A program made the position numbers and the translations under genes. A stretch of 64,000 nucleotides of DNA from a virus. The DNA is taken from IMG/VR virus record IMGVR_UViG_3300043786_000977, positions 99,907 to 163,906 of that record; one strand, 5' to 3'. The notes under the pieces were generated by a model. That model ran no database searches. It was not told the origin of the DNA and saw nothing but the letters and a program-made list of their open reading frames with translations. Positions 3,618-61,937 of this stretch are shown in pieces (the stretch's first letter is position 1; each line of letters opens with the position of its first letter).

Positions 3618-4076
3618 ATGCAACGACAATCATGGGATGAGTATTTCATGATGCTGGCAACCGACGTAGCGACACGGTCGAAAGATCCGTCCACGCACGT
3701 CGGCGCCATTATCGTAGGTCCGGATAACGAGATCCGGGCTACCGGGTACAACGGTTTCCCACGCGGGATTCAGGATAGCGATGCGCGATTAGTGGATCGC
3801 CAGAGTCGGCTTGACTTCACTGTACACGCCGAACCGAACGCCATATTCAATGCTGTACGCATAGGCACATCCACCCGTGGGTGTACCCTGTATGTTGCGG
3901 GATTACCCCCGTGTCACGAGTGTGCTAAGGCAATGATACAGGCTGGTATCATCCGCGTAGTATACAAGAGTGACGACGTACCAGAACGATGGGCTAGTTC
4001 CGTCGCACTGGGTGCGTTACTTCTAACTGAAGCGGGAGTGCGGAGGAGTAAACTAGTATGCCAGCCATCACAGTAA
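3618..4076 (+). CDS. dCMP (deoxycytidylate) deaminase
   Basis: HAEPNAI (HxE) and PCHECAKAMIQAGI (PCxxC) zinc-binding motifs of the CMP/dCMP deaminase family. Confidence 0.85.
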   Translation: MQRQSWDEYFMMLATDVATRSKDPSTHVGAIIVGPDNEIRATGYNGFPRGIQDSDARLVDRQSRLDFTVHAEPNAIFNAVRIGTSTRGCTLYVAGLPPCHECAKAMIQAGIIRVVYKSDDVPERWASSVALGALLLTEAGVRRSKLVCQPSQ

Positions 4077-30461: not shown

Positions 30462-30852
30462 GGGGCCATATTGGTTTCGACGTGATGACTTAGTTCGATA
30501 GATGCATGCCGTGGATTCTCGTTGGCCACGTTAATAAACGGGAAACAACCTTCAAAGGCCGAGCCAATGAAGCTGGCTGCTTAATCACAGCCATAGGAAC
30601 CCGGTGAGCGAGCAGTAACCGGCAGTACGACTCATACAGCTCTAAGCCTGTGAACCGGGCAAAAAGCGGGCGCTGACGAGCCTTGGGCGCAAGTCCAGAA
30701 CGGTCAGTGGTGGAGGGTGACGTAACCGTCGCCCCTGCACTCCTGGGTAGCACGCTTGGCGTATCCCAGGTTTTATTAACGCGAAGCAAGCATGTAGCAT
30801 TCTGTTGAGCGGTTTTTTACGGACGCGGGTTCGATTCCCGCTGGCTCCACCA
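30462..30852 (+). ncRNA. ssrA: tmRNA (SsrA), one-piece
   Basis: 5' ggggccatattggtttcgacg and 3' ggacgcgggttcgattcccgctggctccacca with a G3:U70 pair. Internal tag ORF ...GCC GAG CCA ATG AAG CTG GCT GCT TAA (ends ...MKLAA*). Confidence 0.85.
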
Positions 30853-57668: not shown

Positions 57669-58757
57669 ATGGATCAAGGTCTTAGTCAGGTTGCTATACA
57701 GGGAATCATTCGCCGTAAGATAGGAGATTGGCTGGAGTCGATTGACAACATGGAGTTGCGGCTCTTCCTGTCTGATAAAATCATCGTTACGGGCGGCGCG
57801 ATCGCATCGTTGCTTCGCGGGGAGAAGGTGAACGATTACGATGTCTACTTCACAACGCGGGAAGCAGCCACACGCGTAGCCAGTTATTACTTGGCACGTT
57901 TCGCAGCGAATCCGCCAAAGAGTATGCAGCAGTCACCCGTACGTATGTACGTGGATGATAAGTCAGATCCCGACCGTGTACGTATTGTTATCCAGTCGGC
58001 CGGTGTGATATCTACCGACGGTGATGGCGGCAAGTACGAGTACTTCGAAACGACACCGCCCGCGAATGCCGCAGATTACGTTGCTGACGTGGTAGCCCCG
58101 GTCGTGGATGAAGACGAACAGCGGCTTACCAACGAACTCAGGGACTCGACTACGGATGCCGGTATACCCGACAGTGATAATCCCGAGCTCATGCGCCTCG
58201 TCGAACAGGCAGCCACTGAGGACCTGCCGCCGATGGCGACAGGTCCAGGGGCCAAGGCAAAGAACAGGTATCGGCCGATCTTCCTGTCCGGTAATGCCAT
58301 CACCTTGAGCGACGAGATTCAGCTCATCATCAGGTTCTATGGCCCCGCGGAGGAACTCCACAAGAACTTCGATTTCGTCCACTGCACGAACTACTGGCAG
58401 TCAGAGATGCGTGTCGGCGCGAAGTTCGGGGGTACCCTGGTGGTAAACACGCCAGCCCTTATGAGCCTGATGTCCAAACGTCTGGGGTATATCGGTAGCC
58501 GGTATCCGTTATGCAGTTTGATCCGGACCCGTAAGTTCGTCCGGCGCGGTTGGACGGCGCCGGCCGGTGTGTTCATCAAGGCGATGCACCAGTGCCTGGC
58601 CCTGGACTGGAATAAAATCGAAACCTGGAGAGAACAGTTGACCGGGGTGGATACCGCCTACTTTGCTGAAATCATCGAGATCCTCAAGCGGGATCAGGCA
58701 GCAGGGAAGTCCATAGACTCGGCATACGTCGTTGCCTTAATCGATAGGTTAATTTAA
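57669..58757 (+). CDS. CCA-adding enzyme / poly(A) polymerase-family nucleotidyltransferase-like protein
   Basis: KIIVTGGAIASLLRGEKVNDYDVYF resembles the head motif of class II tRNA nucleotidyltransferases (LVGGAVRDLLLG...DIDI). Confidence 0.45.
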   Translation: MDQGLSQVAIQGIIRRKIGDWLESIDNMELRLFLSDKIIVTGGAIASLLRGEKVNDYDVYFTTREAATRVASYYLARFAANPPKSMQQSPVRMYVDDKSDPDRVRIVIQSAGVISTDGDGGKYEYFETTPPANAADYVADVVAPVVDEDEQRLTNELRDSTTDAGIPDSDNPELMRLVEQAATEDLPPMATGPGAKAKNRYRPIFLSGNAITLSDEIQLIIRFYGPAEELHKNFDFVHCTNYWQSEMRVGAKFGGTLVVNTPALMSLMSKRLGYIGSRYPLCSLIRTRKFVRRGWTAPAGVFIKAMHQCLALDWNKIETWREQLTGVDTAYFAEIIEILKRDQAAGKSIDSAYVVALIDRLI

Positions 58758-59381
58758 CGCGTCTTCGCGTTATAACATATTGTTTAAGGATAGCGTTAGC
58801 ATCCTGATGACCAGGGGTATAACCCCTTCATTTCAGGACCAGTGCACCCTGACAGGCAGGTTTCGAGCTGACCCCATGCGGCGGCCGAGTAGCTGTAGCC
58901 GTGGCGGTGCACTGGTCTCTGATCTGACACCAACCCCTTCCCCGAGGCTGTACACATTCAGTTTGACCCCTATACGGGGCTCGGGGAGTCCTCGCCCGGT
59001 TGGCCCGCAGGGGCTTACCACAATATGTGGAGCCGGGTTACTTTCCTAGGTGAGCGACTGATGGGAACCGCATCTTCCTGTATCGTGCGTGTTCCTGATC
59101 GGCAGTCGCTCACTCCCGGTTACCGCGGGGTTCGTCTCATACGTACTCCTCCCCGCGGGTAACCGGGCTCCTTCTCTTCCTCCCTGCCCCTCAGGGGTTT
59201 GACCACAATACGTGGGTGGGAGACGCTATTACACCGATGATCCCACGATCAAGCGACACCGTCGTGGGGGAGGTTGGGCCATTAGTTGGGCGGTCGATTG
59301 GTAGCGTTAACTGACCTCGACGCTGCTTAAAGTCACGGACCGTGAGGTCATTCTTTCCCTCTGTCAACGCTGTAAAAGGTG

Positions 59382-59411
59382 TTGACAAGGGTTCATGCCC
59401 TGTGTTTTAAT
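59382..59411 (+). promoter_or_regulatory. sigma70-like promoter (TTGACA-17-TGnTTTAAT)
   Basis: ttgaca at 59382, a 17 nt spacer, and extended -10 tgttttaat. A palindrome gtcaacgctgtaaaaggtgttgac lies immediately upstream. Confidence 0.5.
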
Positions 59412-59418
59412 ACACACG

Positions 59419-59753
59419 TTTACCCACTATAGGGCACCGATCTTTCATATTTTAACATGCGGATAGTAGGAGTCAGGCAGCAGCATAAACTACAGGACCT
59501 AGATGTCGTTGGTTCAAGTCCAACACCCTGCGCCAATACAGTTGCAGGGTTAGCTCAGTTGGTAGAGCACCAGGAAAAAACTGATTCTGTAATCCGCACC
59601 ATCTTCGAGGTTGTTAAGAGTGGCACAGCAAAAACTCGTCCTCACGGACATTGCTTTCCCAGCAAACCAGAGTCCACTCTGTATTTTTCATTTTAGCTTC
59701 GGACTGTAGAATTCGTACAGCAAACAACTACCTCCTGCATAAGGAGGTTTTCG
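59419..59753 (+). ncRNA. candidate ncRNA with a circularly permuted tRNA-like module (Y-RNA/YrlA-like tRNA mimic)
   Basis: Module at 59495..59571: T arm gttgg-ttcaagt-ccaac, acceptor 3' accctgc, g, CCA, 8 nt loop atacagtt, acceptor 5' gcagggt (7/7 complementary), ta, D arm gctc-agttggta-gagc, a, ccagg. Promoter upstream; candidate terminators at 59668-59697 and 59731-59753. Confidence 0.45.
59731..59753 (+). terminator. rho-independent terminator
   Basis: cctcct-gcata-aggagg followed by ttttcg. Confidence 0.45.
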
Positions 59754-59805
59754 CCCTCATATGCGAAAACTATATCGAATTCGTAGTCCTCTTTTTCTCA
59801 TCGTT

Positions 59806-60090
59806 CGTAAGGATAGCGCAGCAATCAATCGCCCTTCGGGGCACTAGCCTGTTAAGCTAACCACAGTCTATCCTGTGACCTTTCATTTTCGTACACTCTG
59901 TGACTTCAGCAACTATCGTAGGGATAGCGCAGCAATCAACCGCCCTTCGGGGCACTAGTTATTGGAACTAACCATAGCCTATCCCGTGACTTTTCACTTT
60001 TCAACGCACTCTGTGACTTAAGCGAGCACCGTAGGAATGAGTCGGCAGTCGGCCCTTAACCGGGCGCTACTTCGTCCGAAAGGATGCATG
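59806..60090 (+). repeat. tandem ~112 nt direct repeats (2.5 copies) encoding structured RNA elements
   Basis: Copies at 59806, 59917 and 60030. Each has a closing helix aggatag/ctatcct (copy 1) or gggatag/ctatccc (copy 2), i.e. compensatory A-U to G-C changes, plus a conserved gccc-UUCG-gggc tetraloop hairpin. Confidence 0.6.
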
Positions 60091-60264
60091 AAAAACTGTG
60101 GTACCGGGCACATATGTGTTAACGGGCCACGCGGTGTGATCATTGATTACGCACACTGATATAATAAAAGGTAATCCGTTGCGCACGAGTCGTTATCTTG
60201 GGCGGTCCCGCCGAGGGACTTAAATAACCGTGCAAGTATTCTGTGGTGCTAGCTTATCTGTTCT

Positions 60265-60417
60265 TGTTAAGGATGACGCAGCAAATATCACCCCGCAAGG
60301 GGCGATGGGTTCGATTCCCATAGAGCCCGTTAGGGCTTTGTCAATGGCGACAAATAAGTCATCCTGTACTTTGTTATGTAAGGCCTCGTCCGAGTGGACG
60401 GGGCCTTTGCCTTTTGT
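60265..60417 (+). ncRNA. structured sRNA of the same family, immediately upstream of the Ro60-like gene
   Basis: Shares the 5' aaggatgacgcagcaa / 3' gtcatcctgt closing helix with the tandem repeats. Has a GNRA hairpin cacccc-gcaa-ggggcg, a T-arm-like hairpin atggg-ttcgatt-cccat, and a terminator at 60382-60417. Confidence 0.45.
60382..60417 (+). terminator. rho-independent terminator
   Basis: ggcctcgtcc-gagt-ggacggggcc followed by tttgccttttgt. Confidence 0.6.
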
Positions 60418-60443
60418 AGACGACAACAATAAGGAGACGATGA

Positions 60444-61937
60444 ATGCGTAAGACAACGTCAATGATCAGAGGTCACAATTCAGATCCCTTGCACGCGCAC
60501 AGCGGGGATCATCACCTGGAGTTCTTCTCGAAGGCGGGTTCGCTCTTCGTGAAGGGCAAGGGTAAGAAAGGCGCCAGCTACTACGGTACCAGTTCCGAGA
60601 CGACAGCCCTGTCACTCTTCCAGCCCATGTGGATGTCGCCAGGCCTGGAGAACAAGACACTGGCCATGCAGTTGCTGTTCTGGTTACGTGATCCCCGCGG
60701 TGGCGCCGGCAATCGGTCGGGTTTCCGGGAAATCGTGCGCTGGTTGGCGCAGCAGCCTGAGACGTCGGTTGATCCGTCGGGTGCCACTTGGCTGGGTGTC
60801 AACCTGTTGCGGGTTCCGGAATGGGGACGCTGGGACGATCTGGCAGAACTGTACGGTACGTCACTCGAGCCGCTTGTCGCGGGCGTCTGGACAGAAGCGA
60901 TCATGCGGAAGGAGCACCTGGCTTGTAAGTGGGCCAAGGTTGATATGGTACCGCTGCAGCGCGCCCTGAAAATCAATGAGCGTGGGTTGCGGATGTTGAT
61001 CGTACCGCCCCGTGCCACGATCGTTGAGCGTGCTATGTGCGCGGGTGACTGGACTGCCGTGGACTACTCGAAGATTCCGAGTAAGGCGATGTCCATGTAC
61101 ACGAAGGCGTTCCGGATGCACGACAAGCCCCGGTTCGACGAGTACAAGGCGGCACTGGTGCGTGGGGATAAAGGCGTGAAGATTAACGCTAGTGTGTTGT
61201 TCCCGCACGACTGTGTGAAGCAGGCGAAGACTGGTGATCAGATCATCGCTGAAGCGCAGTTTAAAGCGTTGCCCGATTTCATCGGTGGCACGGATCGGCG
61301 TATCATCGTGTTGGCTGACCGGTCTGGTTCGATGGGTGCTATAGCGCAGGATACGATTACGAACGATAATGTGGCTGTGGCCTTGGCGCTGTATTGCAGC
61401 GATCGGCTGGGTCCGCAGAATCCGTTCTATCGGCAGTATCTGGAATTCCAGAGTACACCGTTCTGGGTGGATTGGAAAAACGAGACGTTTGTGCAAGCCT
61501 GTCGGTCCGGTCAAGGATTCGCGGGTAGCACGAACTTACAAGGGGCGCTTGACGCTATATTGAAGCAGGGCAAAGCTTGGAGAGTCCCTCCGGCACAGAT
61601 GCCTACGATGCTTCTGATCGTCAGCGATATGCAGTTCGATAACCACGTTACTGGGGGAACCCGGATGATAGCCTGTCACGGAACTGAACAGACTGTGGTT
61701 GAGAAATGTATGCAACAGTGGGAAGCTGCTGGTTATCAGCGGCCGACTATTGTTTTCTGGAATCTTGCAGGCTACGCAGGGCAACCTGCGCAAGCACAGA
61801 CACCGAACACTGCCCTTGTGTCCGGTTTCTCACCTGCCATACTGAAATCCATACTGTCTGGTAAAGAAGTTTTACCCCGAGAGGTCATGCTCCGGGCAAT
61901 AGCTAAATATCAGGTAGAGGTCCCCTGCGTGGGGTAA
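60444..61937 (+). CDS. Ro60/Rsr-like protein (TROVE-like N-terminal region with C-terminal vWA/MIDAS domain)
   Basis: 497 aa, RBS AAGGAGACGA. C-terminal vWA with IIVLADRSGSMG (DxSxS), AGSTNL and VSDMQF, which parallels human Ro60 LAVDVSASM / AGGTDCS / FTDNET. N-terminal GASYYGTS resembles Ro60 GGTYY. Lies directly downstream of the Y-RNA-like sRNAs. Confidence 0.5.
   Translation: MRKTTSMIRGHNSDPLHAHSGDHHLEFFSKAGSLFVKGKGKKGASYYGTSSETTALSLFQPMWMSPGLENKTLAMQLLFWLRDPRGGAGNRSGFREIVRWLAQQPETSVDPSGATWLGVNLLRVPEWGRWDDLAELYGTSLEPLVAGVWTEAIMRKEHLACKWAKVDMVPLQRALKINERGLRMLIVPPRATIVERAMCAGDWTAVDYSKIPSKAMSMYTKAFRMHDKPRFDEYKAALVRGDKGVKINASVLFPHDCVKQAKTGDQIIAEAQFKALPDFIGGTDRRIIVLADRSGSMGAIAQDTITNDNVAVALALYCSDRLGPQNPFYRQYLEFQSTPFWVDWKNETFVQACRSGQGFAGSTNLQGALDAILKQGKAWRVPPAQMPTMLLIVSDMQFDNHVTGGTRMIACHGTEQTVVEKCMQQWEAAGYQRPTIVFWNLAGYAGQPAQAQTPNTALVSGFSPAILKSILSGKEVLPREVMLRAIAKYQVEVPCVG

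Follow-up and report, generated by a model that had tools for sequence, protein, structure and literature searches.

The closest described counterparts of the RNAs considered here are YrlA and YrlB, which lie within 4 kb of a Ro60 gene and on the same strand, have ends paired into a stem whose internal loop bears the motif GNCGAAN0-1G, and often include a transfer RNA (tRNA)-like module (PMC4201824). The survey of YrlA and YrlB covered only genomes that had a TROVE protein in their annotation (Chen et al. 2014, PMC4201824). In Thermus phage phiLo, the phage-encoded φRo60 binds a pair of Y-like RNAs, Yrl1 and Yrl2, encoded upstream and bearing the canonical CGAA, as seen by electrophoretic mobility shift assay (EMSA) and cryo-electron microscopy (cryo-EM), and recruits host polynucleotide phosphorylase (PNPase); its proposed role includes evasion of host defence (PMC12135203). 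The Ro60-like DUF2828 protein gp130 of phage Bas63 is reported to counter the Ppl defence system, and the authors of that preprint speculated that some of the neighbouring 'tRNA genes' are Y RNAs, with no RNA partner identified (bioRxiv 10.1101/2024.10.10.617714). No RNAs associated with DUF2828 were described in the literature searched. The subject of this report is an array of seven structured units on the + strand of a 64,000-nucleotide (nt) stretch of virus record IMGVR_UViG_3300043786_000977 (the window, in whose own coordinates all positions are given), at 59461-60373, upstream of a DUF2828 gene whose product has a predicted Ro60 fold. The units belong to a real, strongly covarying RNA family, and very probably serve as RNA partners to a divergent phage Ro60, with a distinct docking motif, large recombining arrays, and carriers among phages of many bacterial phyla.

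The array sits in a 1.7-kb gap poor in open reading frames (ORFs) directly 5' of ORF 60444-61937, with all seven units 71-983 nt 5' of that ORF and on the + strand. Searched as DNA in distant mode, 59400-60450 had no match among 50,697 phage records, and homologous loci were for this reason reached through the protein. As nothing in the phage collection matches it at the nucleotide level, the window is assigned to an uncultivated, tRNA-rich phage lineage.

A covarying closing module

The units were delimited by a motif scan for TA-N-G-NN-T-NNNN-CAGCAA that also required, further downstream, an arm able to pair with the 8 nt behind TA and with GT directly after it. Allowing no more than one mismatch, the scan returned six matches (the cores of units 1-5 and 7 in Table 1), all within 59467-60367, and none elsewhere on either strand of the window. 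At two mismatches the scan reached background, with some 15-20 matches per strand, equal to the number in shuffled sequence, and these matches were discarded save 60032-60244, which was kept for its perfect outer stem and is listed as unit 6. A repeat search found a common 5' signature at 59611 and 60264. The tandem pair that had first drawn attention to the region is present where the original prediction placed it: 59805-59902 and 59916-60013 are 80% identical at a spacing of 111 nt, and the repeat runs on for a further 32 nt (59894-59925 versus 60007-60038, 81%). Tandem Repeats Finder, at a minimum score of 30, did not report these ~111-nt units. The earlier description of two and a half tandem units plus a diverged third copy was right that the repeats are real but undercounted them, there being seven units that begin upstream of the segment it covered; its 'half unit' near 60030 is likewise a genuine repeat, but forms the 5' end of the long unit at 60032-60244.

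Read from the outside in, the module shared by the units consists of an outer stem of 4-5 bp, a 5' GUA opposite a 3' GU, an 8-bp inner stem, and an internal loop. The GUA/GU step could form a tandem G·U/U·G pair with a bulged A. The closing helices AGGATAG/CTATCCT, GGGATAG/CTATCCC and AGGATGAC/GTCATCCT exist as originally written, but the helix is longer than was noted, taking in the outer stem, the G·U/U·G step with its bulged A, and the full 8-bp inner stem.

Conservation of this module was assessed on 43 units from the window and related loci L001-L010 (six loci), leaving out units longer than 140 nt. In these units one pair of the inner stem, G-C, is nearly invariant (40/43) and another, U-A, is kept in 42 of 43, while the internal loop begins with one variable nucleotide followed by CAGCA(A/G) in all 43, with an A-rich strand opposite on the 3' side. 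Pairing is otherwise maintained through sequence change. Twelve of the 15 closing pairs change on both sides, and in the gapless alignment A2, 83.3% of cells pair, as against 62.7% in shuffled alignments (0/500 come up to the actual figure) and 33-42% when the partners are slid. Because the 3' arms were chosen by inner-stem complementarity, the outer stem, which had no role in the choice of units, provides the unbiased test; here 73.0% of cells pair, versus 50.6% when shuffled (0/500) and 33-48% when slid, and 5/5 pairs covary. Where the 3' arm was chosen automatically, the partner was wrong in several long units and in some units of the IMG/VR set described below.

The same helices were recovered independently by RNAalifold on a MAFFT alignment of 11 full-length short units, and unconstrained minimum free energy (MFE) folds include the closing stem in 6/7 window units. 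On the opposite strand, the G·U pairs of the module would become A-C mismatches; because of these G·U pairs and the exclusive + orientation of the units, the constraint is on RNA and not on DNA. Two-sided covariation and strand specificity together show that selection acts on RNA structure, and the compensatory changes that the original prediction had seen within the window are borne out in homologues from related loci.

Association with DUF2828 genes

The generality of the association was examined in a set of 36 distinct loci from IMG/VR, with proteins at 30-47% identity that were reached by an alignment-based protein query. A generic detector (CAGCA[AG], a 7-bp stem, and an A-rich 3' strand) found 0.82 units/kb beside the gene, compared with 0.11/kb over the rest of the gene strand and 0.05/kb on the other one, and 39 of its 102 matches fell within 500 nt directly 5' of the gene. 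Unannotated units also lie beside the DUF2828 gene, and on its strand, in Salmonella phage FelixO1, Klebsiella phi1_175008, Listeria LP-125, Campylobacter F370, Staphylococcus S-CoN_Ph6, Bacillus FADO and Mycobacterium Acquire49. FelixO1 has four of them, with CAGCAA, among its tRNA genes (L012 4654-5500). The module flank differs by clade, being GUA/GU in the window, AGA/G in FelixO1 and GU/AGU in Acquire49, with CAGCAA constant throughout.

Covariance model R1 has a seed of 28 short units, all from the IMG/VR and Klebsiella loci (alignment A5); six misaligned sequences were excluded from it, and nothing from the window or its close relatives went in. The seed stem is 99.5% paired, and 7/7 pairs covary. 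Over the whole window, the model matched only 59612-59687, which is unit 2 and its best match there (22.8 bits, E 0.0033), and 60265-60372 (15.3 bits, E 0.25); with filters off, a search of 58700-60500 added 59805-59881 (E 0.078), 59916-59992 (E 0.26) and 59709-59782 (E 2.7). The model also found units it had not seen in Listeria, FelixO1, Campylobacter and Staphylococcus phages (E 1.5e-7 to 7e-3) and in Bacillus phage. In seven GTDB loci it gave 15 matches, with E from 1.6e-11 to 1e-3 and 15/15 on the gene strand. The RNA family is strictly linked to DUF2828 genes by position and by strand.

Three of these phage loci have features of their own. Aeromonas phage AsFcp_4 carries a 117-nt tRNA-like gene (L013 6915-7031; Rfam tRNA, 54 bits) in which the anticodon arm is replaced by A-rich-GAAUCU-GAGA-AGAUUC-UUUA-CAGCAA, a circularly permuted docking module. 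Listeria LP-125 (L057; 2639-2912, 2980-4503, 5834-7045) has three units 5' of its DUF2828 gene and a gene for an RtcB-like RNA ligase 1.3 kb 3' of it, a layout that recalls the Salmonella rsr-yrlBA-rtcBA RNA-repair operon. In GenBank, coding sequences (CDSs) for 'hypothetical proteins' overlap CAGCAA units in Klebsiella phi1_175008 (L055 4506-4966), where they lie on the opposite strand, and in Staphylococcus S-CoN_Ph6 (L059 4345-4692); these short CDSs are probably spurious.

Units of the array

The interiors of the units vary within the constant module. They hold a tRNA-like domain in unit 1, two small hairpins in units 2-5, an insert of ~190 nt in unit 6, and four hairpins in unit 7 (Table 1).

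Table 1. Positions and structural elements of the seven RNA units and of other features of the window (stems are given as 5' arm/3' arm; fractions are paired positions).
Feature	Position	Strand	Core	Closing stems	Other elements
Unit 1	59461-59596	+	59467-59590	Outer GGAU/AUCC (4/5 in motif scan), GUA, inner GGAGUCAG/CUGAUUCU (8/8 in motif scan)	Then CAGCAG
Unit 2	59609-59688	+	59615-59682	Inner AGAGUGG/CCACUCU	CAGCAA at 59626; two small inner hairpins
Unit 3	59701-59790	+	59707-59784	Outer GGACU/AGUCC (5/5), inner GAAUUCG/CGAAUUC	CAGCAA at 59718; two hairpins inside
Unit 4	59802-59882	+	59808-59876	Inner AGGAUAG/CUAUCCU	CAGCAA at 59819; first tandem unit; UUCG tetraloop GCCC-UUCG-GGGC at 59831-59842; second hairpin UAGC-CUGUUAA-GCUA
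Unit 5	59913-59993	+	59919-59987	Inner GGGAUAG/CUAUCCC	Second tandem unit; UUCG hairpin as in unit 4, at 59942-59953; second hairpin UAGUU/AACUA
Unit 6	60026-60250	+	60032-60244	Outer GCACC/GGUGC (5/5), inner GGAAUGAG/AGUAUUCU (6/8)	Degenerate CGGCAGU replaces CAGCAA; core 213 nt
Unit 7	60262-60373	+	60268-60367	Inner AGGAUGAC/GUCAUCCU (8/8)	CAGCAA at 60279-60284; last unit; GCAA tetraloop CCCC-GCAA-GGGG 60291-60302; T-arm-like hairpin 60305-60321, with GGG-UUCGAUU-CCC at 60307-60319; hairpins 60324-60337 and 60339-60352
Terminator-like hairpin	60380-60417 (hairpin 60380-60407)	+		12 bp, 8 of them G-C	U-rich tail; between unit 7 and gene
Gene for protein of predicted Ro60 fold	60444-61937	+			497 aa; Pfam DUF2828 and DUF7788; vWA domain with DxSxS MIDAS (adhesion site dependent on a metal ion)
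tRNA genes (26)	23000-54904	+			
Transfer-messenger RNA (tmRNA) gene	30462-30852	+			Tag GKQPSKAEPMKLAA

The interior of unit 1 is a circularly permuted tRNA-like domain, made up of a T arm (GUUGG-UUCAAGU-CCAAC), an acceptor-like hairpin of 7 bp whose loop contains GCCA, and a D arm (GCUC-AGUUGGUA-GAGC), and its free MFE fold includes both closing stems. Units 2-6 are devoid of a tRNA-like domain, and unit 7 has only the T-arm-like hairpin. No tRNA was called by ARAGORN or by Rfam RF00005 in 59400-60450, and no family of Rfam 15 matches the units. At E<=10, Rfam gives YrlA (RF02553) for unit 1, at 59480-59593 with 32.8 bits (gathering score 69, E 5.6e-5), no YrlA match for units 2-7, and two further matches, ctRNA_p42d on the terminator and PhotoRC-I on the UUCG hairpin, which were set aside as chance hairpin matches.

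The MFE fold of unit 2 includes the closing stem, that of unit 5 is the family fold, and the family fold of unit 4 lies 1.2 kcal/mol above its MFE. Between units 4 and 5 the closing stem shows a compensatory change from A-U to G-C, and the second hairpin has changed on both strands; an anticodon-loop reading of this second hairpin was dropped, being inconsistent between the copies. Unit 7 includes the GCAA tetraloop and T-arm-like elements that the original prediction had correctly described, as it had the UUCG hairpins of the tandem units, and folds at -42.8 kcal/mol compared with -28.1 in shuffles (z -4.4). The unconstrained MFE fold of unit 6 closes both ends on each other, with a z of only -1.55, and long penultimate units (238-322 nt) occupy its array position in L006, L008 and L009.

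The spacers at 59877-59918 and 59988-60031, between the tandem units, hold fragments like unit ends. One of them, CACUCUGUGACUU, resembles the 3' arm of unit 2 plus GU and is followed by a stray CAGCAA at 59907; these fragments look like remnants of earlier duplications. The terminator segment is 92% conserved in L001, the closest relative, and L009 has a terminator-like hairpin at the same position (3943-3969). Promoter-like matches in the array region occur only at chance level.

The downstream protein

ORF 60444-61937 matches PHROG 850 'RNA-binding protein'. Its AlphaFold2 model (pLDDT 84.4) was compared by Foldseek with the Protein Data Bank (PDB), where the top nine matches were all Ro60/Rsr (1yvr, 9nfa, 2i91, 2nvo and others) over the full length, with E from 3e-7 to 2e-5, TM from 0.43 to 0.61, and ~580 aligned columns. 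The model thus predicts a Ro60-like protein, in which HEAT-like repeats form a ring and a vWA domain that bears a MIDAS comes after them, and the MIDAS residues D292, S294 and S296 are invariant among 17 homologues. A phmmer search of the PDB found nothing for the protein. By tblastn, DUF2828 Ro60-like proteins are present in 693 of the 50,697 phage records, typically beside tRNA clusters. The protein is the presumed partner of the RNA units.

Variation among related loci

Homologues of the downstream protein at 93-54% identity define loci L001-L011, each with 1-3.6 kb of ORF-poor DNA 5' of the gene bearing 4 to ~13 like units. Unit 3 has an orthologue at L001 1011-1087, and unit 7 has orthologues in the last units of L008 (2011-2126) and L009 (3823-3937). 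L001 lacks the equivalent of window 59831-60325, and has in its place a hybrid unit (L001 1110-1187) that joins the 5' half of unit 4 to the 3' half of unit 7 with one stem mismatch. Units are lost or gained by recombination between docking modules, and the array is dynamic.

In three relatives, CAGCAA closing stems enclose complete tRNAs, called by ARAGORN and Rfam, at L006 404-478, L008 1006-1077 and L009 2843-2914; these are Cys-GCA, Gly-UCC, and a tRNA with a UCA anticodon called 'SeC'. If RNase P and 3' processing freed such a tRNA, the leader and trailer could be left as a two-piece docking duplex.

Two further features lie 5' of the array on the + strand. The first is a 362-aa ORF at 57669-58757 with a pol-beta-type nucleotidyltransferase signature (GG...S...DYDVY), a match to PHROG 4400 (unknown function), and a weak nucleotidyltransferase match. 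Its homologues in L003 (58% identity) and L010 (45%), which are syntenic 5' of the RNA array, have a precomputed Pfam match to 'Gad2'. The product might act on the RNAs, for example by CCA addition or tailing, or might be an anti-defence protein. The second, between this ORF and unit 1, is an ORF-poor stretch of ~560 nt (58804-59360) that is missing from L001, has no Rfam match at E<=10, and holds two copies of an internal repeat, ACCACAAUAYGUGG; its MFE is -258.5 versus -216.3 in shuffles (z -6.1), and it might represent either a mobile insertion or a structured RNA of large size.

Alternative explanations

The explanation preferred here is that the seven units are putative small non-coding RNAs that would be expressed separately and bound by the downstream Ro60-fold protein as its Y-RNA-like partners, a reading to which a probability of about 0.7 is given. 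The original prediction had offered Ro60-bound Y-like RNAs as one possibility. That remains the best reading in view of the Ro60-fold gene downstream and the module that accompanies its homologues, but the phrase needs amending, as GNCGAAN0-1G is absent and the protein is not a Pfam TROVE member.

Several observations weigh against this reading. On reading the window sequences, no GNCGAAN0-1G motif was found at the corresponding place, where CAGCAA stands. Pfam finds only DUF7788 and DUF2828, and no TROVE, in the protein encoded by ORF 60444-61937, and a profile search reaches Ro60 only at E 0.21, a marginal sequence similarity. In the IMG/VR set, 13 of the 36 loci have no unit by the strict detector. 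The covariance model gives the tandem units weak scores (11.1 and 9.1 bits), unit 6 is degenerate and the least certain member of the array, and the inner-stem pairing percentage is inflated by the use of inner-stem complementarity in picking the 3' arms. Finally, the modules that enclose tRNAs could point to tRNA processing rather than docking.

This last point leads to the first rival, in which the module is a leader-trailer signal for the processing or maturation of tRNA-like genes, read by an RNase or by the nucleotidyltransferase-like protein, with the Ro-like gene a mere syntenic neighbour. The complete tRNAs within the module in L006, L008 and L009 speak for it, as do the units between tRNA genes in FelixO1 and the Klebsiella phage and the synteny of the nucleotidyltransferase-like ORF 5' of the array in three lineages. 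It is nevertheless disfavoured because the window's 26 tRNA genes lack the module and because a tRNA-like part is missing from many units, including units 2-5 and most of the short ones from IMG/VR; moreover, the module follows the DUF2828 gene even where there is no nearby tRNA cluster (Acquire49, L018, L020). A processing signal is judged unlikely on this evidence.

Quite unlikely, too, is that the units are cis-acting leader elements or operators of the Ro-like mRNA, controlling read-through or translation, and not free small RNAs. Most units lie in the 500 nt directly 5' of the gene and on its strand, and the terminator-like hairpin that separates unit 7 from the start codon might serve as an attenuator. 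This explanation is disfavoured because units also lie 3' of the gene or among tRNA genes, as they do in FelixO1, in Klebsiella, Staphylococcus and Mycobacterium phages, and in L020, L063 and L065. Up to ~13 units spread over more than 2 kb would be excessive for an operator, and the modules include tRNA mimics and whole tRNAs.

It is very improbable that the repeats have no function as RNA and work at the level of DNA, as recombination sites or miniature mobile elements. Copy number does vary between close relatives, and the deletion and hybrid of L001 show that the repeats recombine, but terminal inverted repeats and target duplications are absent, and pairing is kept where sequence is not. 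The G·U pairs, the invariant tandem G·U/U·G among them, lose their complementarity on the other strand, and orientation is tied to the gene strand (15/15 in the GTDB loci); it is because of these G·U pairs and this strict strand bias that a DNA-level explanation is disfavoured.

The chance that the repeats are protein-coding or a CRISPR-like array, which the original prediction had already discounted, is negligible, for although mechanical ORFs of 69-80 aa overlap the region, they are short, overlap one another, have no PHROG match, and are interrupted or deleted in L001, and the repeats are non-identical, have no uniform spacers, and accept substitutions that keep base pairs and not codons. 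Repeats of the CRISPR or ToxI type were rejected as well, since only units 4 and 5 are alike (80%) and the others share the docking module only.

A possible mechanism

Under the preferred reading of the units as Y-RNA-like partners of the Ro-like protein, the array would be transcribed on the + strand as one precursor ending at the terminator at 60380-60417, and then cut into units. The 5' and 3' ends of each RNA would pair into the constant docking module, which would bind the Ro-like ring as known Y RNAs bind Ro60 through their GNCGAA/GGUCCGA helix. The variable interior of each RNA might then tether, gate or titrate a different host factor, such as an exoribonuclease or tRNA-binding enzymes, and a single protein would be equipped with several alternative adaptor or gate RNAs.

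A broader, tentative proposal is that DUF2828 proteins form a large phage branch of the Ro60 fold with its own, previously undescribed, class of CAGCAA-stem partner RNAs, in which docking is constant and cargo swapped by recombination retargets the ring or acts as a decoy or sensor against tRNA-directed and other defences. The cargo would comprise tRNA mimics with different anticodon-like loops, whole tRNAs, hairpins, and large domains. An expandable set of adaptors of this kind, if it exists, would explain how Bas63 gp130 counters Ppl.

The closing stem with CAGCAA forms a signature that, together with the covariance model, finds such RNAs beside DUF2828 genes in tractable phages, namely FelixO1/Bas63, Listeria LP-125, the cluster L mycobacteriophages, and Staphylococcus and Campylobacter phages. 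Whether phage Ro-like proteins act as ribonucleoproteins thereby becomes directly testable. The Y RNA concept would be extended to a second docking motif and to arrays of up to ~13 exchangeable adaptors, often with tRNA-like cargo, and many deposited phage genomes are likely to contain unannotated RNA genes and units mis-annotated as 'hypothetical proteins'.

Relation to described Ro60 systems

As far as sequence and predicted structure can tell, the units behave like Y RNAs in every feature that can be checked, but they fail two tests that define YrlA, the motif and the Rfam score. Like YrlA and YrlB (PMC4201824), the window units lie near a gene of Ro60 type and on its strand, and have an end stem with a motif in the internal loop on the 5' strand. 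The likeness is partial as regards the tRNA-like domain with T arm, closed acceptor-like hairpin and D arm, which is present in unit 1 and is accompanied by hairpin-only RNAs, units 2-6 resembling companions of the YrlB type; several RNAs per locus, probably from one precursor, are a further likeness. Unlike YrlA and YrlB, the window units have CAGCAA in place of GNCGAAN0-1G and helix invariants of their own (the tandem G·U/U·G with bulged A, the U-A pair and the G-C pair). Only unit 1 scores for YrlA at all, with 32.8 bits against a threshold of 69, and 15 related loci have no match to RF02553 at gathering score. There are seven units in the window and ~13 in one relative, as opposed to one or two, some relatives enclose whole tRNAs, and the partner is a DUF2828/DUF7788 protein, outside the TROVE-annotated set of that study.

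Metazoan Y RNAs (RF00019) offer a similar division of labour, with a terminal stem whose bulged helix is the Ro60 site, a variable loop that acts as effector, and several paralogues per genome. The window units have no sequence or Rfam similarity to them, and metazoan Y RNAs, unlike the RNAs of this locus, are RNA polymerase III transcripts without a tRNA-like module. ToxI of type III toxin-antitoxin systems and CRISPR arrays also resemble the locus in placing tandem RNA-coding repeats beside the gene of the binding protein. Their repeats are near-identical, whereas the window repeats keep only the docking module and pairing, and the partner here belongs to neither of those nuclease families.

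Two phage systems complete the comparison. In phiLo, binding was seen directly, whereas here it is proposed, and the window differs in its motif and in its larger array; the two loci are alike in encoding a phage protein of Ro60 fold with Y-like RNAs just upstream. The window protein belongs to the same family as Bas63 gp130 and FelixO1 ORF42, with 31% identity to the latter, and like them is encoded beside a tRNA cluster.

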